DNA of 64,000 bases. Source: Gammaproteobacteria bacterium. Its GTDB lineage: Bacteria > Pseudomonadota > Gammaproteobacteria > Steroidobacterales > Steroidobacteraceae. The stretch covers positions 5,285-69,284 of the forward strand of contig JAABQQ010000238.1 in assembly GCA_011391405.1 (NCBI GenBank), given 5' to 3'. The notes below the pieces were generated by a model, which saw only the letters and a program-made list of their open reading frames with translations, was not told the DNA's origin and made no database searches. Shown one piece after another: positions 13,843-63,074 of the stretch. Both the position numbers and the translations under genes were made by a program. Positions within the stretch are counted from its first letter, which is position 1. Every line of letters begins with the position of its first letter.

Positions 13843-15303
13843 GTGCTGGGGGGACATCCGCGCGCGCTGTCGACGCTATTCTTCACGGAGATGTGGGAGC
13901 GCTTCACGTTCTACGGCATGCGCGCCCTGCTCGTGCTGTTCCTGGTCGATGCGGTCGAGAGCGGCGGCTATGGCTTCGACGACAAGACCGCGACTGCGAT
14001 TTACGGTCTCTACACGGCAGCGGTCTTCATGGCGGCGCTGCCGGGCGGCTGGATCGCCGACCGGCTGATCGGCGCGCAACGCGCCGTCATGGTTGGCGGC
14101 GCGCTGATGACGCTCGGCACCCTGATGCTGACGATACCCGGCCCGCAACAGCTCTTCTTCGGCGGGCTCGTGGTGATCATCCTCGGCGTCGGCCTGCTGA
14201 AACCGAACGTCTCCACGCTCGTCGCCGACCTCTACCCCGAAGGCGGCGGCCGGCGTGACGCAGGCTTCACGATCTTCTACATGGGGATCAACCTCGGTGC
14301 GTTCATCGGCCCGTTGATCGCGGGCTGGCTGGCGCAGCGTTACGGCTGGCGCATCGGTTTTCTCGCGGCGGCGATCGGCCTGCCCTTCGGATTGCTGCAA
14401 TTCTGGCTGTCACGCCGTCTGTTCAACGGCGCCGGCGCGCACCCGAACCGCAATGACGGCGGCGCAGGGCTCGCGACTGACTGGCGTCGGCTCTGGGTCG
14501 CGCTGGCCGTGTTCGCCGCGGTTGCGGCCGTGCTGTTCTCAGGGACCGTGCACCTCGACCCGGCACGACTCGCAAAAAGCGCCGCCTACGTGCTGGTCGG
14601 CATGGCCGCGCTGTACTTCCTGTACCTGTTCTTCGGCGCGGGACTCAACCCGGTCGAACGCAAGCGCATGGTTGTCGTGCTCGTGATGTTCCTGGGGGTC
14701 GCGTCGTTCTGGTCGGGCTACGAGCAGGCGGGCTCGTCGCTCAACCTCTTCGCCAAACGCTACATCGATCGCATGGTCGGTGGCTTCGAAATTCCGGCGG
14801 GCTGGTTCCAGTCGGTGCAGCCGGCGTTCGTCATCCTGTTCGCGCCAGTCTTCTCGGCGCTGTGGGTGCAACTCGCGCGACGCCAGATGGATCCTGCTGC
14901 GCCGCTCAAGTTCGCGTTCGGGTTGCTGCTGATGGGCCTGGGGTTCCTGTTCATGGTGTCCGCGGCCAATATCGTGGCCGGTGGCGCCAACGCCCCGGCG
15001 TACCTGCTGATCCTGACCTACCTGCTCACCGTGTTTGGCGAGCTCTGCGTGAGCCCCGTCGGCCTCTCGACCGTGACCAAGCTCGCGCCGGCGCGGCTGG
15101 TCGGGCAGATGATGGGCGTCTGGTTCCTCGGCAGCTCGCTCGGCAAGCTCATGGCCGGCCTCATCGCCGGCGGCTTCGACGCCAACAACCTCGCCGCGAT
15201 GCCTGACCGGTTCATGGGTATCGTGCTCTACGCCTGCGGCATCGGCGTGTTCCTGCTGCTCATCAGCCGCCCACTCGCGCGACTGATGGGCAACGTCCGC
15301 TGA
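13843..15303 (+). CDS. POT/PTR2 family proton-dependent di/tripeptide transporter (paralog 1)
   Basis: GHPRAL..FFTEMWERFTFYGMRALLVLFL (ExxERFxYYG signature) and the FYMGINLGAF motif. GTG start. Confidence 0.88.
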   Translation: MLGGHPRALSTLFFTEMWERFTFYGMRALLVLFLVDAVESGGYGFDDKTATAIYGLYTAAVFMAALPGGWIADRLIGAQRAVMVGGALMTLGTLMLTIPGPQQLFFGGLVVIILGVGLLKPNVSTLVADLYPEGGGRRDAGFTIFYMGINLGAFIGPLIAGWLAQRYGWRIGFLAAAIGLPFGLLQFWLSRRLFNGAGAHPNRNDGGAGLATDWRRLWVALAVFAAVAAVLFSGTVHLDPARLAKSAAYVLVGMAALYFLYLFFGAGLNPVERKRMVVVLVMFLGVASFWSGYEQAGSSLNLFAKRYIDRMVGGFEIPAGWFQSVQPAFVILFAPVFSALWVQLARRQMDPAAPLKFAFGLLLMGLGFLFMVSAANIVAGGANAPAYLLILTYLLTVFGELCVSPVGLSTVTKLAPARLVGQMMGVWFLGSSLGKLMAGLIAGGFDANNLAAMPDRFMGIVLYACGIGVFLLLISRPLARLMGNVR

Positions 15304-15347
15304 GCCTGTACCCGCTTTCATTGCTCGTCCCAAGAACTGGAGTCCTC

Positions 15348-16664
15348 ATGCCTTCGACCCTGTGCCTGTCCGTCCGCCGTGCGTTCGCTGCCGTCGCGGC
15401 GTGCGCAATCCCGACCGTCTTTGCTGCCGATGTGCCGTCCGCTGCGGTCCCCGAACCCATCACGGCGATCAAGGCGGGCAAGCTCATCGACGTGGTGACG
15501 GGCCGGGTGCGCAATGACCAGGTGATCATCGTGCAGGGCGGCAAGATCAGCGCGGTCGGTGCCGCCGGGGTGACGGTGGTACCGCCGGGTGCCACGGTCA
15601 TCGACCTCTCCAGCAAGACGGTGCTGCCGGGACTGATCGACACGCACACGCACGTGACCGGTGACCCGACCACGCCGCCCTACCGTGGCTACGGTATTTC
15701 GATTCCGCGCGAGGCGCTGATGGGTGCGCGCTTTGGCCGCGAGACGCTGCTGTCCGGCGTAACGACGATCCGCAACGTCGGCGCCAGCGGTTACTCGGAC
15801 ATTGCGCTGCGCGATGCCATCAACGCGGGCGACGTCATCGGACCCCGCATCCTGGCGTCGGGCCCGGCACTGGGCATCACGGGCGGCCATTGCGACAGCA
15901 ACATGCTCGCGCCCGAATACAACGAACGCGGTGAGGGCGTGGCTGACGGCGTCGACGCGGTGCGCGCGATGGTGCGCAAGAACGTGAAGTACGGCGCGGA
16001 CGTGATCAAGTATTGCGGCACCGGCGGCGTGTTCTCCAAGGGTACGCGAGTCGGCGCGCAGCAATACACGCCGGAAGAAGTCGCCGCGATCGTCGACGAA
16101 GCCCACATGCACGGCCGCAGGGTCGCAGTGCATGCGCACGGCGCCAATGGCATCAAGGTCGCGCTCAAGGCAGGCGTCGACACGATCGAGCATGCGAGCC
16201 TGATCGACCAGGAAGGGCTCGACCTGGCAAAGAAGACCGGTGCGTACCTGTCGATGGACATTTTCAACACCGAATACACGCAGTCCGAAGGCCCCAAGCG
16301 CAATGAGATGGAGGAGTTCCTGCGCAAGGACCGCGAAGTGGCGCAGGCGCAGCGCGATAATTTCCGCAAGGCCGTGCAGATGGGCATCAAGCTCACCATG
16401 GGCACCGACACCGGTGTGCATCCGCACAAGGACGCGCCGAAGCAGCTCGCGTACATGGTGCAGTACGGGATGACACCGATGCAGGCGATCCAGGCGGCCA
16501 CGAAAGTCGGCGCCGAGGCACTCGGCATCGAAGCCGAGGCCGGACAGATCGCCGCGGGCTACTCGGCTGACATCGTCGCCGTGACACGCGACCCGCTCGC
16601 GGACATCCACGCGCTGGATGCCGTCGAGTTCGTCATGAAACAGGGAACCGTGTACAAGCAGTAA
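15348..16664 (+). CDS. Exported amidohydrolase-superfamily metallohydrolase (probable dipeptidase/prolidase-like, COG1228 type)
   Basis: Signal peptide (AVAACAIPTVFA/AD), LPGLIDTHTHV metal-binding motif and later VHAHG and HAS motifs. GGAG SD lies 6 nt before the ATG at 15348. Confidence 0.75.
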   Translation: MPSTLCLSVRRAFAAVAACAIPTVFAADVPSAAVPEPITAIKAGKLIDVVTGRVRNDQVIIVQGGKISAVGAAGVTVVPPGATVIDLSSKTVLPGLIDTHTHVTGDPTTPPYRGYGISIPREALMGARFGRETLLSGVTTIRNVGASGYSDIALRDAINAGDVIGPRILASGPALGITGGHCDSNMLAPEYNERGEGVADGVDAVRAMVRKNVKYGADVIKYCGTGGVFSKGTRVGAQQYTPEEVAAIVDEAHMHGRRVAVHAHGANGIKVALKAGVDTIEHASLIDQEGLDLAKKTGAYLSMDIFNTEYTQSEGPKRNEMEEFLRKDREVAQAQRDNFRKAVQMGIKLTMGTDTGVHPHKDAPKQLAYMVQYGMTPMQAIQAATKVGAEALGIEAEAGQIAAGYSADIVAVTRDPLADIHALDAVEFVMKQGTVYKQ

Positions 16665-16736
16665 TCCGGTCGGGCAGGGGGGCTCGCCATCAGGGATCAC
16701 TGGTTCGGGCATCCGCGAGGACTCGCCACACTCTTC

Positions 16737-18164
16737 ATGACGGAGATGTGGGAGCGCTTCACCTATTACGGGATGCGCGGGATCCTGATCCTGTTCCTGG
16801 TCGACGCCGTCGCGACCGGCGGCTTCGGGCTCGACGATCGCAAAGCCACCGCGATCTACGGCCTCTACACCACGGCGACGTACCTGATGGCCCTGCCCGG
16901 CGGCTGGCTCGCCGACCGCCTGCTCGGAGCCCAGCGTGCGGTCGTGTGGGGAGCCGCGCTGATTCTCGTCGGCAACACGGCGCTGGCGATTCCGGCAGGA
17001 CCCACGCTCTTCTATACCGGTTGCCTGGTGGTCGTGCTCGGCGTCGGGCTGCTGAAGCCGAACATCAGCGCGATGGTTGCACAGCTGTATCCGCAAGGCG
17101 GCGCCGCGCGTGACGCAGGGTTTACCCTTTTTTACCTGGGCATCAACGTCGGCGCATTGATCGGTTCACTGGCGACGCCCTGGCTCGCGCAGCAGTACGG
17201 TTGGCGCGCAGGATTTGCGGGCGCCGCCGTCGCGATGGCCCTCGGGCTCGCGCAGTTCCTGCTTACTCGCCATCACCTGGGTGACGCTGGAAAACGTGCG
17301 CGTCCCACGCATCCAGCTTTGCTCGCCGCCGACCAACGGCAGTGGCGCGGAGTCGTGGTCGTGCTGGGCGCCGTCGCTGTCATCACGACGCTGATTGCAG
17401 CCGGCATCATCACGCTCGACCCGACGCATGTCGCACGCTGGACCGCCGTTGCGATCCTCGTCGTGACCGTGGGGTATTTCTTCTACCTGCTCACGTTCGC
17501 CGGTCTCGACCGCATCGAGCGCCGACGCGTGCTGGTCGTGCTCGCGCTCTTCGTTTCGTCCGCGCTGTTCTGGGCCGGTTACGAACAGGCGGGCTCGTCG
17601 TTGAACCTGTTCGCGGAACGGTTCACCGATCGCATGGTTGGCGGCTTCGAGATTCCCGCGGGCTGGTTCCAGGCGCCGAGTGCGCTCTATATCCTGCTGT
17701 TCGCGCCGGCGTTCTCCGCACTCTGGATCTACCTCGGCCGGCGCAACCTCGACCCTTCGGCCCCCGCCAAGTTTGCATTCGGCCTGCTGCTGCTCGGCCT
17801 GGGGTTCCTGGTGATGGTGGGTGCAGCCACGGTGGTCGCCAGCGGCCGGCTCGCGGGTCCGCAATGGCTACTGCTGGCCTATCTGCTGCATTGCTTCGGC
17901 GAGTTGTGCCTGAGCCCCGTGGGTCTCAGCTCGGTGACGAAACTCGCACCGCCTCGCTTCGTCGGCCAGATGATGGGACTGTGGTTCCTGGCGACGTCGC
18001 TCGGCCTGTTGCTTGCCGGTCTCGTCGCCGGTGGGTTCGATGCACAGGACGTCGCGTCGATGCCCGGCCAGTACCTGAAGATTGCACTCGTCTCGCTTGG
18101 TGCGGGTGCCGCCCTGCTCCTGATCGCCAGCCGTGTGCAGCGTCTGGCAGGCGGCATCAAATAG
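16737..18164 (+). CDS. POT/PTR2 family peptide transporter (paralog 2); true start probably upstream (ATC at 16689)
   Basis: MTEMWERFTYYGMRGILILFL signature. The conserved WFGHPRGLATLF segment is encoded in frame upstream of the first ATG (see finding). Confidence 0.85.
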   Translation: MTEMWERFTYYGMRGILILFLVDAVATGGFGLDDRKATAIYGLYTTATYLMALPGGWLADRLLGAQRAVVWGAALILVGNTALAIPAGPTLFYTGCLVVVLGVGLLKPNISAMVAQLYPQGGAARDAGFTLFYLGINVGALIGSLATPWLAQQYGWRAGFAGAAVAMALGLAQFLLTRHHLGDAGKRARPTHPALLAADQRQWRGVVVVLGAVAVITTLIAAGIITLDPTHVARWTAVAILVVTVGYFFYLLTFAGLDRIERRRVLVVLALFVSSALFWAGYEQAGSSLNLFAERFTDRMVGGFEIPAGWFQAPSALYILLFAPAFSALWIYLGRRNLDPSAPAKFAFGLLLLGLGFLVMVGAATVVASGRLAGPQWLLLAYLLHCFGELCLSPVGLSSVTKLAPPRFVGQMMGLWFLATSLGLLLAGLVAGGFDAQDVASMPGQYLKIALVSLGAGAALLLIASRVQRLAGGIK

Positions 18165-18212
18165 GGGACGTGCACCGGCAAATAGACTATTTGCCGGTGC
18201 ACGTCCCCTATT
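18160..18212. repeat. 53-bp perfect palindrome (26-bp arms, 1-nt centre) overlapping the stop codon of POT paralog 2; REP-like element or factor-independent terminator hairpin
   Basis: AATAGGGGACGTGCACCGGCAAATAG-A-CTATTTGCCGGTGCACGTCCCCTATT read directly. The stop TAG (18162-18164) lies in the left arm. No clear U-tract follows. Confidence 0.7.
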
Positions 18213-18301
18213 CCTATTCCAGCTTGCTCTCGCACCGCAAAATCCACCAGACTCTGCAGCCTCGCGCCCGTTGGCGCAACCCATTGGAATAGCGAAAAAT
18301 A

Positions 18302-19672
18302 ATGTCCAGCACAGCAGTACCCGGCGTGCCCGACGGCACCTGGCTCGGCCACCCGAAAGGACTGTTCCTGCTCTTCGCGACGGAGATGTGGGAACGCTTC
18401 AGCTACTACGGCATGCGCGCATTGCTGGTGCTGTCGCTCGTGGCAGGCGTCGAGGTTGCGAACCCCGGTTTCGGCTGGACGCAGGCTGAAGCGCTCAAGC
18501 TGTACGGTCTCTTCACCGGCTTCGTCTACTTCACGCCGCTGATTGGCGGCTGGCTCGCCGACAACTACCTCGGCCAGCGCAAGTCAGTGATCATCGGCGG
18601 CCTGGTCATGGCCGCGGGTCAGTTCACGCTGGCAGCCGCGATTCCGGGCAACCTGCAGCTTTTCTACATCGGCCTGATCCTGCTCGTCCTCGGCAACGGC
18701 TTCTTCAAGCCGAACATCTCGACGATGGTCGGCGATCTGTACCCCGAAGGCGACGCCCGTCGCGACGGCGCGTTCACGATCTTCTACATGGGTATCAACG
18801 CGGGCGCGTTCCTGGCGCCGCTCATCTGCTCGACGCTCGGTGAGGATCCTGCCAGGGGTTGGGCGTACGGCTACTTCGCTGCCGGCGTCGGCATGATCCT
18901 GTCCGTCATCATCCAGCTGCTGCTGGCGCGCAAGTACCTCGGCGAGATCGGCGTGGTGCCGGCCGCGCGCCGGGCTGCGGCGCTCGCGGGCGGCGAGAAA
19001 AAACCGCTCACGCCGGACGAAGTCGATCGCCTGCGCGTGATCTTCATGCTGTTCGTGTTCATCGTGCTGTTCTGGGCCGCGTTCGAGCAGGCTGGTGGCC
19101 TCATGAACCTGTACGCCGCGGAGAAGACCGACCGCATGATTGGTACGTTCGAAGTGCCGGCGGGCTGGTTCCAGTCGCTGAACCCGCTCTTCATCGTGCT
19201 GCTGGCGCCGCTGTTCTCGGTTGCCTGGAGCAAGCTCGGCGAGATCGGCCGCAATCCCGCGACGCCGAAGAAAATGACGATGGGCCTGGTGCTGACTGGC
19301 ATCGGCTTTCTCGCGATGGTCGCCGCGGCGCTCGAGTCGCAGGGTGGCGACGCCAAGGCGAGCATGTGGTGGCTCGTGATCGCCTACTTCTTCCACACGA
19401 CAGGCGAACTCTGCATCTCGCCGGTCGGGCTCTCGATGGTCACGAAGCTCGCGCCACTGCGCCTCGCCTCGCTGATGATGGGCGTCTGGTTCCTCATCAA
19501 TTTTGTTGCGAACTGGCTGGCCGGCATCATCGGCTCATACGCCGAATCGCTCGGCGAGCTGTCGATCTTCGGCGGCCTGGCCGGGACGCTGTTCTTCTTT
19601 GCGATCGTGCTCTGGACGCTGTCCGGCACACTCGTGCGGTGGATGCACGGCGCCGAAGACATCAAGCACTGA
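18302..19672 (+). CDS. POT/PTR2 family peptide transporter (paralog 3, DtpT-like)
   Basis: WLGHPKGLFLLFATEMWERFSYYGMRALLVL signature and FYMGINAGAF motif. Confidence 0.88.
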   Translation: MSSTAVPGVPDGTWLGHPKGLFLLFATEMWERFSYYGMRALLVLSLVAGVEVANPGFGWTQAEALKLYGLFTGFVYFTPLIGGWLADNYLGQRKSVIIGGLVMAAGQFTLAAAIPGNLQLFYIGLILLVLGNGFFKPNISTMVGDLYPEGDARRDGAFTIFYMGINAGAFLAPLICSTLGEDPARGWAYGYFAAGVGMILSVIIQLLLARKYLGEIGVVPAARRAAALAGGEKKPLTPDEVDRLRVIFMLFVFIVLFWAAFEQAGGLMNLYAAEKTDRMIGTFEVPAGWFQSLNPLFIVLLAPLFSVAWSKLGEIGRNPATPKKMTMGLVLTGIGFLAMVAAALESQGGDAKASMWWLVIAYFFHTTGELCISPVGLSMVTKLAPLRLASLMMGVWFLINFVANWLAGIIGSYAESLGELSIFGGLAGTLFFFAIVLWTLSGTLVRWMHGAEDIKH

Positions 19673-20500: not shown

Positions 20501-22345
20501 ATGACCTCGACCCGCACCGGTGGCATCGCCCCGCGTTCCCTGCCCTGTAAGCTGCGCAGCCGCCTGGCTGCGGGCGTAGCCATCGCGCTCTGCACGCTCG
20601 CGCCGCTCGGCGTCGCCTCGGCCGAAACCGCCGACGAGTTCGTCGCGCGACTCAACAGGGAATTCGCCGACATCTACCGCGAGCTCAATGCCGCCGGCTG
20701 GACGCAGGCGACCTACATCACGGTCGACACGCAGTGGCTTAGCGCGCGAGCCAACGAGCGCTTCCTCGCCGCCTTCAGCAAGGCGGTCGAGGAATCGAAG
20801 CAGTTCGACGGCAAGCCGATGAGCGCCGCATCGCGCCGCGCCATTGACCTGTTACGGCAGGGAGTGTCTGCGCCGGCGCCGGATGACCCCGCCAAGCGCG
20901 CCGAACTCGCGACGATCATGGCGGGCATGGAGGCGAAGTACGGCGAGGCCAGGTACTGCAAGGATGACGGCAAGGAGTGCCGCGACGAAGTGCAGCTGAA
21001 GACGGTACTCGAGGAAAGCCGCAACTACGACGAGCTGCTCGACGCCTGGAAGGGCTGGCACGACCAGGCCCGCGGGCTGCGCGCTGACTATGTGCGCTTC
21101 ACTGAACTGGCGAACGAAGGCGCGCGCACGCTGGGCCACAAGGACCTGGGCGCAATGTGGCGCTCGGGTTACGACATGCCCGCTGACGACTTCACCAGGG
21201 AAGCTGCACGCCTCTACCGGCAGGTCGAGCCGCTCTACAAGGACCTGCAGTGCTACGCGCGCGGCAAGCTCGCGGCGACGTACGGCGAGGACAAGGTGCC
21301 GGCGGGCAAGCCGATCCCGGCGCACCTGTTCGGCAACATGTGGGCCCAGCAATGGGATGCCGCCTATGACATTTTCGAACCGTATCCCGGCGTGAGCCCG
21401 CTCGACGTGGACTCCGCGCTCGTCGCGCAGAAATACGACTCGGTGCGCATGGCGAAATCAGCCGAGGCGTTCTACCAGTCGATCGCGTTCCCGGCGTTGC
21501 CGGCGACGTTCTGGGAACGCTCGATGCTGTCGCAGCCGCGTGACCGCAACGTGCAATGCCACGCGAGCGCCTGGCACATGGATGGCAAGGACGACGTGCG
21601 CATCAAGATGTGCACGCGACCGACGCTCGAGGAGCTGAAGACCCTCTATCACGAGATGGGTCACGTCTATTACTTCCTCGGGTACAAGGACCAGCCGGTC
21701 ATGTTCCAGAACGGCGCGCATGACGGCTTCCACGAAGCCATCGGCGACACGATCACGCTGTCGATGACGCCCGCGTACCTCGCGCAGATCGGCCTGCTGC
21801 CCGAATCGAAGCCCGGCAAGGAAGCAGTCATCAACCAGCAGATGAAGATGGCGCTGGAGAAGATCGCGTTCCTGCCGTTCGGCAAGATGATCGACGAGTG
21901 GCGCTGGCAGGTGTTCTCGGGCCAGGTGCAGCCGGAGAATTACAATGCAGCGTGGTGGGCGCTGCGCGAGAAGTACCAGGGCATCCGCCCGCCGATCGAG
22001 CGCACCGAAGCCGACTTCGACCCGGGTGCGAAGTACCACATCCCCGGCAATACGCCGTACACGCGCTACTTCCTGTCGTTCATCATGCAGTTCCAGTTCC
22101 AGAAAGCGCTTTGCGCAGCGGCTGGATTCAAGGGCCCGCTGTCGGAGTGCTCGATCTTCGGCGACGAGGAAGCGGGCAGGAAGTTCGGCGCGATGCTCGC
22201 CAAGGGCGCAAGCCAGCCGTGGCAGGACACGCTGTACGAGCTGACGGGCACGCGGCAGATGGACGGCTCGGCGATCATCGAATACTTCAAGCCGTTGCAG
22301 GACTGGCTCAAGCAACAGAACAAGGGTGAGACCTGCGGCTGGTAG
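20501..22345 (+). CDS. Secreted M2-family zinc metallopeptidase (peptidyl-dipeptidase A / angiotensin-converting-enzyme-like)
   Basis: Signal peptide ending ASA/E. HEMGH zinc motif followed about 24 residues later by HEAIGD (the third zinc-ligand Glu), as in the ACE family. 614 aa. Confidence 0.85.
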   Translation: MTSTRTGGIAPRSLPCKLRSRLAAGVAIALCTLAPLGVASAETADEFVARLNREFADIYRELNAAGWTQATYITVDTQWLSARANERFLAAFSKAVEESKQFDGKPMSAASRRAIDLLRQGVSAPAPDDPAKRAELATIMAGMEAKYGEARYCKDDGKECRDEVQLKTVLEESRNYDELLDAWKGWHDQARGLRADYVRFTELANEGARTLGHKDLGAMWRSGYDMPADDFTREAARLYRQVEPLYKDLQCYARGKLAATYGEDKVPAGKPIPAHLFGNMWAQQWDAAYDIFEPYPGVSPLDVDSALVAQKYDSVRMAKSAEAFYQSIAFPALPATFWERSMLSQPRDRNVQCHASAWHMDGKDDVRIKMCTRPTLEELKTLYHEMGHVYYFLGYKDQPVMFQNGAHDGFHEAIGDTITLSMTPAYLAQIGLLPESKPGKEAVINQQMKMALEKIAFLPFGKMIDEWRWQVFSGQVQPENYNAAWWALREKYQGIRPPIERTEADFDPGAKYHIPGNTPYTRYFLSFIMQFQFQKALCAAAGFKGPLSECSIFGDEEAGRKFGAMLAKGASQPWQDTLYELTGTRQMDGSAIIEYFKPLQDWLKQQNKGETCGW

Positions 22346-40907: not shown

Positions 40908-40956
40908 CTGTCTCTTACCTCTCCCACCGCAGGGCGAAAAAGCGTCTCTGCCGTGC

Positions 40957-41176
40957 GCGGTGCTGGAGGTGACGGTCTTCTGCCGCGCCCCGAAGTCTCC
41001 CGCGCATCGTGAATCGCGCGGAGGATCCGCACGATTCACGGCGACCCTTGCGCGAGCGGGAGCGAAGCGATGGTGTCAGCGCAGTAGCGACCGGACGACG
41101 GTGCCGCTTCGCTCCTACGCTCGAGCTGCGGCGTCCGACACGGGGCGCGGCAGAAGACCGTCACCTCCAGCACCGC
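40957..41176 (+). repeat. Structured palindromic element, copy A (220 bp: 36-bp perfect terminal inverted repeats plus a 148-bp asymmetric core with two internal hairpins)
   Basis: Arms 40957-40992 and 41141-41176 are exact reverse complements. Inner hairpins are CGTGAATCGCGCGG/CCGCACGATTCACG and GGAGCGAAGCG/CGCTTCGCTCC. The outer 9-bp pairing 40945-40953/41205-41213 extends the stem. Confidence 0.85.
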
Positions 41177-41728
41177 ACGCTCCGTAAGTCCCTTTTTCGC
41201 GTCGCGGCAGAGATGAAGACACCCGCACCCGGCCTCGCGGCCGGACTCTCCCGACCAAGTAGCGTTACGGTGGCTGTCCGCTCATCTCGTCGAGGTCGGT
41301 TCGCAACCTCTGCGCCCAGGCCTGAACGGCGTGGCGAAAATCGGCACTGTTGGCGACCGTGCCCGGGAACTGCAGTGTGCGTATCACGCCAGGCTGCGCT
41401 CCGGTGTGTTCATGTGGAGGCCGGCAAGACCGGGGCTCACGCGGATGGTATCGTCGCCCGGGGATCCGGCCCCAGGGAGCACGTACAGCGCGGCCTCACG
41501 GCGCGCGGATATTCGCGCCCACTCTCGACCCGGCCGCATCGAGCAGCAAGCCGTAATGCCGACAGCGAGAGAGGCGGAAACTAGACGTCGTCCCTGCTTG
41601 CGCCTGTTCAGCAATCTCGCCTCTCCCACCGGTTGTCGCCTCGCCCGAATTAGCGGGATTAGTCGCGCAGAGCACGGTTGAGGGTCTTCTCTGTCCTGCG
41701 TTGCCGGGCTTGCAACGTGCGGTGAGGT

Positions 41729-41954
41729 CGTGCGGTACCGGAGGTGGCGGTCTTCCTCCGCGCCCCGTGTCGGACGCCGCAGCTCGAGCGCAGGAGCGAA
41801 GCGGCACCGTGGCCTGGTCGCTACTGCGCTGACACCATCGCTTCGCTCCCGCTCGAGCAAGGGCCGCCGTTAATCGTGCGGGTCTTCCGCACGATTAACG
41901 AAGCGCGGGAGACTTCGGGGCGCGGAGGAAGACCGCCACCTCCGGTACCGCACG
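41729..41954 (-). repeat. Structured palindromic element, copy B (226 bp: 39-bp perfect terminal inverted repeats plus a 148-bp core), inverted relative to copy A
   Basis: Arms 41729-41767 and 41916-41954 are exact reverse complements. The reverse-complemented core aligns to copy A without indels, with about 12 substitutions in 148 nt by hand alignment. Confidence 0.85.
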
Positions 41955-42051
41955 CGTTCACTTCGTAACGATGGTCCGGTCGCCGAGGAAAAAGAGAGGC
42001 CCTCACCCGCACTTTGCGCAACCACTCCCACTGCCGTGGGAGCGGCGAGAA

Positions 42052-58882: not shown

Positions 58883-59746
58883 ATGACGGCCAGGAAGACA
58901 GTGAAAGCCAGGAAGACAATCAAGTCCCGCAAGGCCACGAAATCCCGCAAGGCCAGGACAACCACGCCGGCCGGTTCAGTGGTGGCACTGTCGAACGAAC
59001 AAGTGACCAGGGTGCTCAAGCTCCTCAAAGGGGCGAACAGCGTCGAACTGAAGTTCGTCGTGCCGGCCACAGGCCATCGTGCGACGATCGCTGGCATCGG
59101 ACTGGATCCGGTCGAGGCGCAGCCGCGGCAGGCCTTTTTCTTCGATACTCCCGGCCTGGACCTGAACAAGGCTGGACTGATTGTCCGAGCCCGGCGCATC
59201 CAGGGTGGGCGTGCCGATACCGTCGTGAAATTGCGACCGGTGGATCCAGCCACGATCGACCCAGGCCTTCGTCGCTCAGGCAGCTTCAAAGTCGAACTGG
59301 ACGCGATGCCGGGCGGATTCGTGTGCTCGGCGTCGCTGAAGGGAACCTGCACCGCCCAGGAAGTGCTGGACGTGACCACGGGCACCAAGCCGCTGCGGTC
59401 ACTGTTCTCCAAAGAGCAGCTGGCGTTCTACGATGCACACGCTCCTGCGGGCATCGGGATGGACTCGCTGGTCACGCTGGGCCCAACCTTTTTGCTCAAG
59501 GCCAAGCACAACCCGAAGAACTTCGACCGCCGCGTCATCGTGGAAATGTGGCTGTATCCCGATGGCTCTCGGATCCTCGAGGTTTCGACCAAGTCCCTGC
59601 CGGAAGAAGGCTTCCAGGTCGCCGCCGCGTTCAAAGCTTATCTGGCCGAAAGTGGAATCACGCTGACCGTCAGCGGGGAAACGAAAACGAAGGCGGCAAT
59701 GGAGTTCTTCGCGCGCAGACTCAAGGCGGAGCGGGTGACCCGTTGA
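58883..59746 (+). CDS. CYTH-like domain protein with a lysine/arginine hexapeptide-repeat N-terminal tail
   Basis: The tail is ARKTVK-ARKTIK-SRKATK-SRKART. Strand motifs VELKF, IVRARR, VVKLR, KVELD, IVEMW and ILEVSTK resemble the TTM/CYTH tunnel pattern. GGAG SD. Confidence 0.55.
   Translation: MTARKTVKARKTIKSRKATKSRKARTTTPAGSVVALSNEQVTRVLKLLKGANSVELKFVVPATGHRATIAGIGLDPVEAQPRQAFFFDTPGLDLNKAGLIVRARRIQGGRADTVVKLRPVDPATIDPGLRRSGSFKVELDAMPGGFVCSASLKGTCTAQEVLDVTTGTKPLRSLFSKEQLAFYDAHAPAGIGMDSLVTLGPTFLLKAKHNPKNFDRRVIVEMWLYPDGSRILEVSTKSLPEEGFQVAAAFKAYLAESGITLTVSGETKTKAAMEFFARRLKAERVTR
58889..58960 (+). repeat. 4 x 18-bp tandem coding repeat (hexapeptide repeats)
   Basis: GCCAGGAAGACAGTGAAA / GCCAGGAAGACAATCAAG / TCCCGCAAGGCCACGAAA / TCCCGCAAGGCCAGGACA. 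Confidence 0.85.
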
Positions 59747-59937
59747 TCGGCGGCAACACCATGGCGACAACGGTTCGGCAGGTCACGATCCTTGCTTAAT
59801 TGGAAGTGAATAATTACTCCGCTGACGAGTCAATAGCCAGATAACTGTCAGTACTTGATTGACAATCGTTCGACACGGACAGAGCCGGCGCGGTTGCTAT
59901 ACTGCCGCTCTTTGCGCGAGCAGTGAGCCTCCTCCCC

Positions 59938-60948
59938 ATGCCCAAAGTGGCCCAGCCTCCCCGCACCTTCCAGGACCTCCTGCTCACGCTGCAACGCTAT
60001 TGGGCCGAGCGGGGTTGCGTGATCCTGCAGCCCTACGACATGGAGGTCGGTGCGGGTACTTTCCACACCGCCACCTTCCTGCGTGCGGTCGGACCCGAGC
60101 CCTGGAGCGCCGCGTACGTGCAGCCCTCGCGCCGGCCGACCGACGGCCGCTACGGCGACAACCCGTTCCGGCTGCAGCACTACTACCAGTACCAGGTGGC
60201 GATCAAACCGTCGCCGCCGGACATGATCGAGCTGTACCTCGGTTCGCTGCGCGCCGTCGGCATCGACCCGCTCGTGCACGACGTCCGGCTGGTCGAAGAC
60301 AACTGGGAATCGCCAACGCTCGGCGCCTGGGGCCTCGGCTGGGAGATCTGGCTGAACGGCATGGAGGTCACGCAGTTCACGTACTTCCAGCAGGTGGGTG
60401 GCCTCGACTGCCGGCCCGTCATGGGCGAGATCACCTACGGCCTCGAGCGGCTCGCGATGTACCTGCAGGGTGTCGAGAGCGTGTTCGATCTGGTCTGGAC
60501 CGACGGGCCGCTCGGCCGCGTCACGTACGGCGACGTCTACCACCAGAACGAGGTCGAGCAGTCGAAGTACAACTTCGAATACGCGGACGTCGACGAGCTG
60601 TTCCGGCAGTTCGACGCTCATGAAAAAGAGTGCCTGCGGATGCTCGAGGTCAAGCTAGCGCTGCCGGCCTACGAGCGCATGCTCAAGACCTCGCACACGT
60701 TCAACTTGCTCGACGCGCGCAAGGCGATCTCGGTGACCGAGCGTCAGCGTTACATCCTGCGAGTGCGCACGCTGGCCCGCGGTGTGGCCGAGGCGTACTA
60801 CGCCAGCCGCGAGGCGCTCGGGTTCCCGATGCTGCAAAATAGGGGAGCCTCCCCTATTTTGCATGTCGATCCGCCGCTGCCGGAGAGGGGAGCCTCCCCA
60901 ATTTCCAATGGAAATTGGGGAGGCTCCCCTACCGGAGGCCTGGCATGA
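59938..60948 (+). CDS. glyQ: Glycine--tRNA ligase alpha subunit, with a repeat-encoded C-terminal extension
   Basis: [18 protein letters not shown]..., [17 protein letters not shown] and [10 protein letters not shown] motifs. Start is either the ATG at 59938 or the GTG at 59923. The conserved end EALGFPM is followed by 38 extra residues. Confidence 0.92.
60834..60862. repeat. REP-like hairpin inside the glyQ 3' end
   Basis: GCAAAATAGGGGA-GCC-TCCCCTATTTTGC (13-bp stem, 3-nt loop). Confidence 0.85.
60886..60929. repeat. 44-bp perfect palindrome, each arm containing a GGGGA-GCC-TCCCC mini-hairpin, inside the glyQ 3' end
   Basis: A-GGGGAGCCTCCCCAATTTCCA|TGGAAATTGGGGAGGCTCCCC-T. Confidence 0.85.
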
Positions 60949-63074
60949 GCGCCTCCCGCGATTTCCTGGTCGAGATCGGCACCGAAGAGTTGCCGCCCAA
61001 GTCGCTGCTCAACCTGAGCGCAGCGTTTGCCGAAGGGGTGGCCAAGGGACTCAAGGACGACGGCATCGCTTACAAGTCGCTTGAGGCATTCGCGACCCCG
61101 CGCCGGCTGGCCGTGCGCGTCAGGAAACTGATCGAACAACAGCCGGACCGTCCGCTCGAAAAGCGCGGCCCGCCCGTGAAAGCCGCTTTTGATGTGAACG
61201 GTGCTCCAACGCAGGCAGCCGTTGCTTTTGCGCGTGGCTGCGGCGTCGACGTCTCGGCGCTCGAGAAGATCGAGACGCCCAAGGGTGAGTGGCTCGTCTT
61301 CCGTGGCACCGAGACGGGTGCGCGCACCGTGAACCTGCTCCCCGCCATCGTCACGGCATCGCTCGATGCGTTGCCGATCGCCAAACGCATGCGCTGGGGC
61401 GCCGGCGAAGCACTGTTCGTGCGCCCGGTGCACTGGGTGCTGATGCTGTGGGGCAACGATGTAGTAGAGACGGAGATCCTCGGCCAGAAGGCAGGCAACG
61501 TCACCTACGGTCACCGCTTCATGGCACCGAAGGCGCTCCGGGTCTCGAGCCCGGCATCCTACGTTGGTACTCTGCTCAAGCGCGGCAAAGTCATGGCCGA
61601 CGTGAATGCACGCCGCGACAGCATTCGAGCCGGCGTCACCGCCGTCGCCGAGAAGCTGGATGGCATCGCCGTCATCGACGGCGCGCTGCTCGACGAGGTC
61701 ACGGGCCTGGTCGAATGGCCGGTCCCGCTGGCGGGACGATTCGACCCGCAATTCCTCGAACTGCCGGCCGAAGTGCTGATCGCCACGATGCAGGAGCACC
61801 AGCGGTATTTCCCTGTGCGCGATGCGCAGGGAAAGCTGATGCCCTGGTTCATCACGGTTTCCAACATCGAGAGCCGTGACCCGTCACAGGTGATCGCCGG
61901 CAACGAGCGAGTCGTGCGCCCGCGCCTGACCGATGCTGCGTTCTTTTACAAGACCGATCGCCAGCACCCGCTCGAGACGCAAGTGGATGCGCTCAAGCGC
62001 GTGACCTTCCAGACGCAGCTCGGCTCGCAGCACGACAAGTCGGAGCGCGTGCGCGCCCTGGTGAAATCGATTGCTGCGACCATCGGCGGCGACCCGGCCC
62101 TGGCCGATCGTGCCGCAGTGCTCAGCAAGTGCGACCTGCTCACCCACATGGTGGGGGAGTTCCCTGAACTGCAGGGCCTGATGGGCAGGTATTACGCGTT
62201 GCACGATCACGAACCGGCCGACGTCGCCGAGGCGCTGCGCGAGCAGTACCTGCCCCGCTTTGCGGGCGATGCCTTGCCGGTCACGCGCACGGGCATGGCG
62301 CTCTCGATTGCGGACAAGCTCGACACGATTGCGGGCATCTACGCAACGGGCCAGAAGCCGACCGGCACGCGCGATCCGTTCGGCCTGCGCCGTGCGGCAC
62401 TCGGCCTGTTGCGCACGTCGATCGAGCACGGGCTCGACCTCGACCTGCAGCAGCTGATCGGTCAGGCCGTCGCCGCCGCGCGAGACGACATGGCGCGCGT
62501 CGCGACCGGGCAGGGCAAGTCGTTGGGCGCGATCGATGCTGAAAAGCTTGCGGTCGAGGTCTACGACTACGTGCTCGAACGCCTGCGTGCGTATTACGTG
62601 GAAGGAACCGCCGATATCACTGTTTCGGTCGAAGCGTTCGACGCCGTGCTGGCGACTCGCCCCGCGTCGGCGCTCGATTTCGATGCCCGGCTGCGCGCAC
62701 TGGTGCGGTTCCTGCAGTTGCCGGACGCAGCCAGCCTCGCGGCGGCCAACAAGCGCATTGCCAACATCCTGAAAAAGGTGGCGGAGCCCGTGGGCGAAAC
62801 GGTCAATGAATCGCAGCTCATCGACCCCGCGGAGCAAGTGCTGGCCGAGCAGGTGGTGGCGATTGCGCGCGAGGTCGAGCCGATGTTCGCGGCACGCGAC
62901 TACGCCCCTGCGCTGCAGCAGCTCGCGGCCTTGCGCAAGGCGGTCGATGATTTCTTCGACTCCGTGATGGTCAATGCGGACGATCCGGCCCTGCGTGCGA
63001 ACCGACTGGCGTTGCTGAATCGCATGCGCGGTTTGTTCATGCGGGTGGCCGACCTGTCGCGGTTGCCGGGCTGA
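60945..63074 (+). CDS. glyS: Glycine--tRNA ligase beta subunit
   Basis: [20 protein letters not shown]-terminus, and RFAPSPTG-type and anticodon-binding regions. ATGA overlap with the glyQ stop. Confidence 0.93.

Follow-up and report, generated by a model that had tools for sequence, protein, structure and literature searches.

The glycyl-tRNA synthetase (GlyRS) genes described here lie in a 64,000-nucleotide (nt) stretch of DNA, hereafter the window, from a gammaproteobacterium of the family Steroidobacteraceae (contig JAABQQ010000238.1 of assembly GCA_011391405.1), and the source genome is known here from this window. The gene for the alpha subunit, glyQ, extends over positions 59938..60948 of the plus strand in the list of open reading frames (ORFs) and comprises 336 codons plus a TGA stop (60946-60948); ATG at 59938 is its likeliest start, with GTG at 59923 as the alternative. 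Its product carries the GlyRS-alpha domain PF02091 (tRNA-synt_2e) at residues 11-292 of 336 (Pfam, E = 1e-146), a full-length match to the catalytic domain which, together with the glyS gene next to it, is as expected of a GlyRS alpha subunit. The Escherichia coli alpha subunit, of solved structure (PDB 7eiv_A, 303 amino acids (aa), E = 7e-159), can be aligned only to residue 299; the canonical GlyQ domain ends around this residue with the conserved ...GFPM, after which 38 more codons follow (60832..60945, plus strand). This C-terminal tail had been pointed out in an earlier inspection of the letters alone (the sequence-only reading), and the domain limits at residue 292 or 299 bear it out. 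The beta subunit gene glyS (60945..63074, plus strand; Pfam PF02092, E = 5e-203, and DALR_1) begins inside the end of glyQ, as the plus-strand ATGA at 60945..60948 combines the glyS start codon (60945-60947) with the glyQ stop codon. This overlap is preserved despite the repeats described below, as the sequence-only reading held, and ATGA or GTGA is kept in nearly all relatives of the clade. The Shine-Dalgarno sequence of glyS, GGAGG at 60934..60938 (plus strand), is located 6 nt before the ATG and within the conserved GGLA end of the GlyQ tail, and it is conserved across the junctions of the clade with minor substitutions only. The terminal glyQ codons ACC GGA GGC CTG GCA TGA thus hold both the GGAGG and the ATGA, and GGLA is conserved because its codons carry these signals.

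The tail contains two perfect palindromes, both on the plus strand coordinates of glyQ. Site A (60833..60863) is a single module, TGCAAAATAGGGGAG-C-CTCCCCTATTTTGCA, of 15+1+15 nt with 100% complementary arms, read as QNRGASPIL, while site B (60886..60930) is an inverted dimer of the module, 22+1+22 nt and likewise 100% complementary, with the 13-nt mini-hairpin GGGGAG[C/G]CTCCCC present in each arm. The modular unit consists of an A/T run, GGGGAG, one central base, CTCCCC and a further A/T run, and it often forms inverted dimers. Both palindromes are slightly larger than first reported, and the repeated peptide RGASPI does mirror the repeated DNA module. The mini-hairpin is present in three copies at the glyQ tail and none elsewhere in the 64 kb (0.14 in shuffled sequences, one mismatch allowed). 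The tail as a whole had been taken to be almost entirely palindromic; it is partly repeat, but the palindromes make up only 76 of its 114 bases (about two thirds), and the rest is older scaffold, including the non-repeat codons HVDPPLPE (60862..60885, plus strand), which are conserved in the clade with or without palindromes. The RNA of the junction (60815-60975) is strongly structured, as anticipated, folding at -98.7 kcal/mol compared to -62.7 +/- 4.9 kcal/mol for shuffles (z = -7.4), and CCGG at 60880-83 pairs with 60932-35 in the minimum free energy structure. The absence of a stop codon across the repeats is confirmed, yet it is less remarkable than it had seemed: the module can be read through in two of three frames and contains a stop only in the AAA-TAG register, so stop-free passage is not in itself improbable. 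An exact look-up of the window GlyQ protein returned no identical record, and independent evidence is instead taken from a JGI contig (L307), which displays the same layout at 94% identity, without indels and in frame with ATGA. As the same arrangement occurs in this independent contig, the palindromes are not an assembly artefact.

Relatives of the window locus were collected by two related-locus scans (at least 600 matches listed each), by a protein search with the last 100 residues of the window GlyQ, which retrieved GlyQ fragments of the clade, and by a DNA-pattern scan, which gave the closest module-bearing genomes, absent from the matches listed by the related-locus genome scan. Across the clade, the tail follows a common scaffold of ...GFPM-L, a variable segment, (H/L)VDPPLPE(K/R)G, either LTT or an insert, and GGLA. 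The VDPPL(PE) motif is common to protein hits P0003-P0023 and to a more distant relative (L016/L098, 84% identical). Members free of inserts exist as well, for example MINLMDPPLPEKGLTTRGLA, the DNA of which (L180) is without a palindrome and folds weakly. Judged from these comparisons, about one third of the window tail (HVDPPLPE...TGGLA) is an older, clade-wide, non-repeat scaffold, and the palindromes fill two insertion points of this scaffold, sites A and B. The sequence-only reading had considered that relatives might share the tail as a conserved non-repeat segment; this is true of roughly that third, whereas the rest is repeat. In general, GlyQ tails span 1-53 aa among gammaproteobacterial relatives, and the tail is located outside the structured GlyQ domain. 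Fused alpha-beta GlyRS proteins have been deposited in the PDB (7lu4, 7xjy), and a natural alpha-beta fusion is also seen in a distant relative (L144), where the glyQ frame enters glyS without a stop. The variable tails and the natural fusions together indicate that the GlyQ C-terminus is a permissive place.

The window-type module is found in the glyQ tail of at least seven related genomes or contigs (L004, L006, L007, L009, L012, the JGI metagenome contig L095, and L307). Comparison of glyQ 3' ends thus shows an insertion that is common to a small clade rather than strain-specific, and the number of modules is variable. Six of the seven, all except L307, carry an inverted dimer at site A. 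The window and L307 combine a single module at site A with a dimer at site B (tail of 38 aa), L004 has the site A dimer and a single degenerate module at site B (38 aa), and L007 has the site A dimer and none at site B, which reads EKGLTT (37 aa). In L006, site A consists of a partial module, a dimer and another partial module, followed by a single, degenerate module at site B (48 aa), and L095 carries dimers at both sites (53 aa). Equally close relatives without palindromes are also present (L096, L097 and L180), with tails of 10 aa in L096 and 5 aa in L097.

A reading-frame constraint is visible in these variants, as the spacings of coding copies are always multiples of three and those of non-coding copies are not. 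In the in-frame variants, the AYYAS... motif of GlyQ and DFLVE of glyS are 182, 185, 185, 215 or 230 nt apart, each value being 2 mod 3, and the module spacings inside glyQ are divisible by three in 12 of 12 cases (30, 45, 54 and 60), a count that overstates independence since many of the 30-nt spacings are shared by descent. In the non-coding spacer between rplT and pheS, where the module also occurs, the module spacings are 36, 31, 28 and 28 and the spacers measure 64, 96, 29 and 113 nt, covering all three mod-3 classes. The window, L004, L006, L007, L095 and L307 retain both the frame and ATGA, as do L015, L033, L177 and L178, which carry other palindromes. The question of whether relatives are always in frame can be answered positively for all window-type variants except L009 and L012 (both 199 nt). 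Relative to L004, one C is absent from GGGGAACCTCCCC in L012, and relative to L006, one base is absent from a G/C run in L009. Both are MFD metagenome-assembled genomes (MAGs) from Nanopore-only sequencing (PMC12313526), and homopolymer indels are a known residual error of this technology (PMC9262707); the two frameshifts are probably errors. Overall, the frame evidence is supportive and not a formal statistic. A separate observation is that L004 and L012 both reside on a 77-kb Nanopore contig (CAVVKQ010000025.1), which holds two versions of the junction, one of them in frame; the L012 version displays the 1-nt deletion and an extra 15-nt partial module. The two versions suggest a strain-collapsed or duplicated assembly.

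The module is conserved at the nucleotide level. While GlyQ of the window differs from that of the other module-bearing genomes at 0.4-1.8% of residues, four-fold degenerate sites differ by 20-27%. Divergence of the 13-nt module core is only 3-5% per site for any pair of copies, whether within a locus, between genomes, or between glyQ and rplT-pheS, and third codon positions inside the module do not drift, which points to a constraint on DNA or RNA and not on the peptide. This conservation fits selection on the hairpin or on a recognition sequence, and concerted evolution through copying between sites or arm-to-arm correction would give it equally. In L307, the A/T flanks have decayed without compensation and the core persists.

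Other palindromes occupy the same codon position in relatives. At least five different sequences (L015, L033, L177, L178 and L179) were checked in the DNA and are read in frame. In L015, GGAAAAACCGGGGACATTCTCCGATTTTCCGG and its complement form a 64-bp perfect palindrome with a sequence unrelated to the window module, and in L177, GGAAATGGGGACGGAGCCCTATTTCCGGGC and its complement form one of 62 bp; the palindrome arms are 27 bp in L179 and 18 bp in L178. Besides its in-frame tail palindrome, L033 carries a 45-bp inverted dimer, AGGGGACGCTCCCCTTTACGG...CCGTAAAGGGGAGCGTCCCCT, around 80 nt upstream of glyQ (L033:2877-2921). A partial module, TAGGAATG, supplies glyQ with its stop codon and glyS with its start codon in L179 (~440-480), where it has replaced the ancestral VDPPLPE...GGLA scaffold and the ATGA overlap. 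Further tails among the protein hits look hairpin-derived, e.g., ENGDIPVF and KGSVPFSGEKGTDP. All glyQ-tail palindromes are built alike: GGGGA and TCCCC enclose a short centre and are flanked on the outside by A/T runs, the first of them often GGAAA-, and inverted dimers are the usual form.

As the sequence-only reading required, the module has other genomic copies, found in the rplT-pheS spacer of related genomes. An exact scan with the 19-mer module pattern ATWGGGGAGCCTCCCCWAT against 185,579 species-representative genomes, which misses diverged copies, gave 14 loci. Nine of these belong to a few uncultured gammaproteobacterial MAGs and are found only at the glyQ tail (L004, L006, L007, L009 and L012) or in the rplT-pheS spacer (L003, L005, L008 and L013). 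The remaining five, in other phyla (L001, L002, L010, L011 and L014), were dismissed as chance matches, as around 17 hits are expected by chance in 596 Gb according to our own calculation. Module-free relatives (L303-L306) carry a classical intrinsic terminator, GGCCGG...CCGGCC followed by T7-8, ~30-40 nt before pheS, in spacers of roughly 110-165 nt. The module-bearing spacers are 29-113 nt long and consist almost entirely of modules, and in these four spacers neither a classical terminator nor a recognisable Shine-Dalgarno sequence before pheS was seen; a pheM-like leader peptide was seen in neither module-bearing nor module-free spacers. Some rplT genes read into such hairpins (P0122, ending in ...LPAAEQGNRGGSPISQ, L301 and L302), and in-ORF copies are seen only in glyQ and, in some relatives, in rplT tails. 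In the RplT (L20) variants in question (P0122, P0168 from L302 and P0169 from L301; 132-165 aa), translation of GGGGA-type hairpins gives rise to C-terminal extensions, and rplT of L301 overlaps the start of pheS. Two of these three variants stem from long-read assemblies and may include indel errors.

Within the window, a second hairpin element is located at 18160..18212 (plus strand). This perfect palindrome of 53 bp shares its termini, AATAGGGGAC...GTCCCCTATT (AATAGGGGA...TCCCCTATT), with the glyQ module, and the TAG it contains (18162-18164) serves a POT transporter gene (16737-18164, Pfam PTR2) as stop codon; a second POT gene follows at 18302. The pattern AAWWGGGGA has six matches in the window, all at the glyQ tail and this element, whereas 0.46 are expected. 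An element TAG likewise supplies the stop codon in L008, L179 and L176, the latter being an L015-type half-element between convergent genes. The L015-type palindrome was considered as a dispersed family and set aside, as it was found at one other locus only, in another genome (L176). Similar modules, often in inverted pairs, lie directly after stop codons in Steroidobacteraceae MAGs (L193, L258 and L239) and in a Usitatibacteraceae MAG (L234). The elements are therefore located mainly just 3' of ORFs, at times providing the stop, as is the case for REP/REPIN elements (REP, repetitive extragenic palindromic). The bare architecture is generic, with at least 120 matches listed across many unrelated phyla for a looser, loop-agnostic pattern, AAAWWGGGGANNNTCCCCWWTTT.

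Taken together, it is fairly probable that the palindromes are copies of a low-copy, lineage-specific family of REP/REPIN-like, terminator-like hairpins that colonises the permissive glyQ tail, with the reading frame filtered by selection. The module resembles both REP/REPIN elements and bidirectional intrinsic terminators, and it may have spread by transposition or by gene conversion. Such hairpins would settle at the very 3' ends of genes in an uncultured gammaproteobacterial clade near Steroidobacteraceae. GlyQ would already have possessed a tail of ~20 dispensable C-terminal residues, whose final codons hold the glyS ribosome-binding site and ATGA, and modules would have entered this tail at two points and have since been gained, lost, duplicated and collapsed. 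The survivors would be only those variants that keep the glyQ frame open to ATGA. A glyQ stop further upstream would leave an untranslated, terminator-like hairpin of roughly -40 to -60 kcal/mol (our estimate) before the essential glyS, while ribosomes translating glyQ would melt the hairpins and reach the glyS start. We propose that translational coupling of glyQ and glyS is the reason for frame retention, which would reflect selection against polarity on glyS, with the peptide of the tail being a presumably disordered passenger.

Several observations weigh against this explanation. Copy number is very low for a mobile repeat, with about two loci per genome in the exact 19-mer scan and one window-type locus in 64 kb, and no RAYT (REP-associated tyrosine transposase), Y1_Tnp or other transposase or insertion sequence was detected among the ~48 window proteins screened. 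No target-site duplication was recognised when filled and empty sites were compared; TGCA flanks site A on both sides but belongs to the stem. Nor is an unpaired GTAG or CGTC tag seen, as the termini AATAG or AATTG, followed by GGGGA, are paired with the opposite flank. The argument from selection on the frame is weakened by the shared descent of spacings noted above, by the two of seven module-bearing relatives that are frameshifted (L009 and L012), if these are real, and by the discovery of L177-L179 through in-frame protein hits, which biases them towards open frames.

It could alternatively be speculated that the hairpins are a selected cis-regulatory RNA device at the glyQ|glyS and rplT|pheS junctions, i.e., a translation-dependent terminator, an attenuator or an RNase target, which would make expression of the downstream aminoacyl-tRNA synthetase gene dependent on upstream translation or tRNA charging. 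Conservation of the core indeed greatly exceeds that of neutral sites, to an equal degree between both loci; the only two loci of the unbiased exact scan both precede a gene of an alpha/beta-type aminoacyl-tRNA synthetase; at rplT-pheS, the module occupies the place of the classical terminator of relatives; the RNA structure is very stable (z = -7.4); and perfect stems of 22-32 bp would, we infer, suit RNase III-type cleavage. Yet the presence of palindromes varies at similar GlyQ divergence (L096, L097 and L180), as do module number and layout, L307 displays decaying palindrome flanks, the bare architecture is generic and common to many phyla, and no Rfam family corresponds to the module: at gathering thresholds Rfam returned nothing in the window, and a local search gave generic miRNA-hairpin noise. 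Furthermore, a simple consensus terminator scan flags only the minus-strand copy at 60929-60917, the plus-strand tract being TATTTTG. Masking of the glyS Shine-Dalgarno sequence and AUG by the palindromes was also examined and rejected, as predicted accessibility is much the same for filled and empty sites (mean unpaired probability of 0.05-0.40 and 0.23-0.45, respectively, with no clean separation). The role in alpha:beta subunit stoichiometry proposed in the sequence-only reading is not supported either, both for this reason and because L096, L097 and L180 do without palindromes. Attenuation through glycine codons was discarded as well, since GGGG runs yield Gly codons of necessity, in equal number in both open frames. 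A regulatory device of this kind is accordingly considered unlikely. We regard as somewhat less likely still the specific proposal that the modules are a functional, sequence-specific cis element at exactly glyQ|glyS and rplT|pheS that has displaced an ancestral terminator or attenuator at rplT|pheS. If true, expression of the downstream subunit of two heterotetrameric aminoacyl-tRNA synthetases would be coupled either to translation upstream or to a common factor that binds or cleaves RNA, and the glycine-rich GlyQ tail would be a by-product of a terminator-like hairpin inside a reading frame.

The palindromes might also have a local origin, with template-switch (quasi-palindrome) mutation and duplication on the spot, and not mobile insertion, having made them and kept them perfect, in a glyQ tail that is simply tolerant. 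For perfect inverted repeats in Proteobacteria, template switching has been discussed as an origin in the part of the paper available to us (PMC5941160), and it would fit arms that are 100% complementary over 15-32 nt against a neutral divergence of 20-27% between relatives, the very low copy number of each sequence type, the different palindromes at one site in different lineages, and the single module at site B of L004 (ERGTSP), which looks like a reworked form of the empty-site EKGLTT. However, a module of 21-25 nt is shared by two unlinked loci in the same genomes, and the A/T run and GGGGA termini recur at unrelated gene ends, so copying between loci is required; a purely local origin therefore does not seem likely. 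Colonisation by a hairpin family also accommodates a mixed model, in which the arms are homogenised locally after dispersal. Finally, hairpin-induced misassembly could in principle have made the palindromes or removed a stop, an error which the sequence-only reading had itself envisaged. Palindromes are hard to sequence, and two related Nanopore MAGs are frameshifted at the same spot, yet the identical, indel-free layout of the independent contig L307 effectively refutes an artefact, and related in-frame layouts in L095, L004, L006 and L007 and in many independent protein records add to this, leaving it hardly credible.

Palindromic repeats inside genes are known from several systems. REPs are defined by a conserved, unpaired terminal GTAG tetranucleotide (PMC3733652), and Di Nocera et al. 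2013 described REPs that lie completely within ORFs, tRNA synthetase genes among them, as well as clusters that encode 43-82 residues, REP ends that provide TAG stops, and dimers in both head-to-head and tail-to-tail orientation (PMC3733652). The elements described here resemble REPs, bacterial interspersed mosaic elements (BIMEs) and REPINs in being short G+C-rich stem-loops (modules of ~25-31 nt with perfect stems, compared to 20-40 bp), in forming inverted dimers that fold into a longer hairpin (the BIME/REPIN doublet, as at 60886-60930 and in L003-L007 and L095), in lying just 3' of genes, with termini that give TAG stops and copies that are sometimes in ORFs including tRNA synthetase genes, and in a family sequence conserved beyond neutral expectation. 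They differ in that ATAG/ATTG is base-paired in the stem and no unpaired GTAG tag is present, in having around two exact-match loci per genome where REPs have tens to hundreds (some families 20-100 or fewer), in arms that are perfect where those of REPs are usually imperfect, and in that REPs are mobilised by RAYT (an IS200/IS605-like Y1 transposase), none of which is encoded among the ~48 window proteins. The label REP-like, given in the sequence-only reading, is thus apt for the short stem-loops and inverted dimers at gene 3' ends, whereas strict membership is unsupported, given the lack of an unpaired GTAG, the presence at about two loci per genome by exact match and the absence of a RAYT from the ~48 window proteins. 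The classical in-frame case is that of Rickettsia palindromic elements (RPEs), which are inserted in protein genes, including housekeeping genes, with function kept (PMC10969869). As with RPEs and intragenic miniature transposable elements with inverted repeats (MITEs) such as ERIC and BOX, a palindrome is inserted in frame and adds a peptide while the host protein remains intact. Yet RPEs are ~100-150 bp, alphaproteobacterial and CGTC-tagged, with a family-specific conserved peptide in dozens of ORFs per genome, whereas the units described here are 25-30 bp, found at very few loci and restricted to a C-terminal tail, and their conservation is at the nucleotide and not the peptide level. With intrinsic terminators and mobile repeats of terminator-like form, such as SPRITE of Streptococcus pneumoniae, the module shares a G+C-rich stem between an A run and a T run, the layout of a bidirectional terminator, as well as the terminator position after rplT and a generic pattern common after stops in many phyla. 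However, its T tract is short and interrupted (TATTTT), while classical terminators of the clade have T7-8, and the glyQ hairpin is translated and would not normally form; any terminator function of the module is putative. In the part of the source consulted, mitochondrial genes of Nematomorpha are described to contain long perfect inverted repeats in coding sequence, with both arms translated; these repeats are mitochondrial and eukaryotic, reach up to 284 bp in many genes and, as far as that part goes, show no link to operon junctions (PMC6649704). Since REPs within ORFs have been described before, the glyQ tail represents a clear and recurrent case of a known phenomenon and does not involve a new mechanism.

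The clade nevertheless offers a natural series at one essential-gene end, from the empty site to single, double and multiple hairpins of at least six sequences, which shows how a protein can take up palindromic repeats while an overlapping stop/start junction stays intact. For annotation, it follows that long, low-complexity C-terminal extensions of housekeeping proteins in MAGs can be translated repeats, and that genes may appear falsely fused where Nanopore indels fall on such hairpins. The same module is moreover paired with two aminoacyl-tRNA synthetase operons.

Other features of the window concern its repeats and gene content. Two copies of a ~228-nt sequence, ~89% identical, are located at 40952-41179 and 41729-41956 in the non-coding gap between a dihydroorotate dehydrogenase gene and a gene for an ntrC-like sigma-54 regulator. 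Each copy has terminal inverted repeats of 36-46 nt and a nearby 33-nt hairpin (41008-41040 and 41868-41900), and the element looks MITE-like; for this element, Rfam gave generic hairpin hits only. Directly 5' of glyQ, an ORF of 287 aa (58883-59746) without a Pfam match displays a lysine/threonine-rich repetitive N-terminus, MTARKTVKARKTIKSRKATKSRKARTTT.... Finally, the POT gene ended by the second hairpin element lies in a region (13843-19672 and 20501-22345) with three genes for POT-family peptide transporters and an amidohydrolase gene among them. These are followed by a GntR/UTRA regulator gene and a gene for a full-length Peptidase_M2 (angiotensin-converting-enzyme-like, E = 4e-218), and, going by these predicted products, the region looks like a peptide-uptake and degradation cluster.

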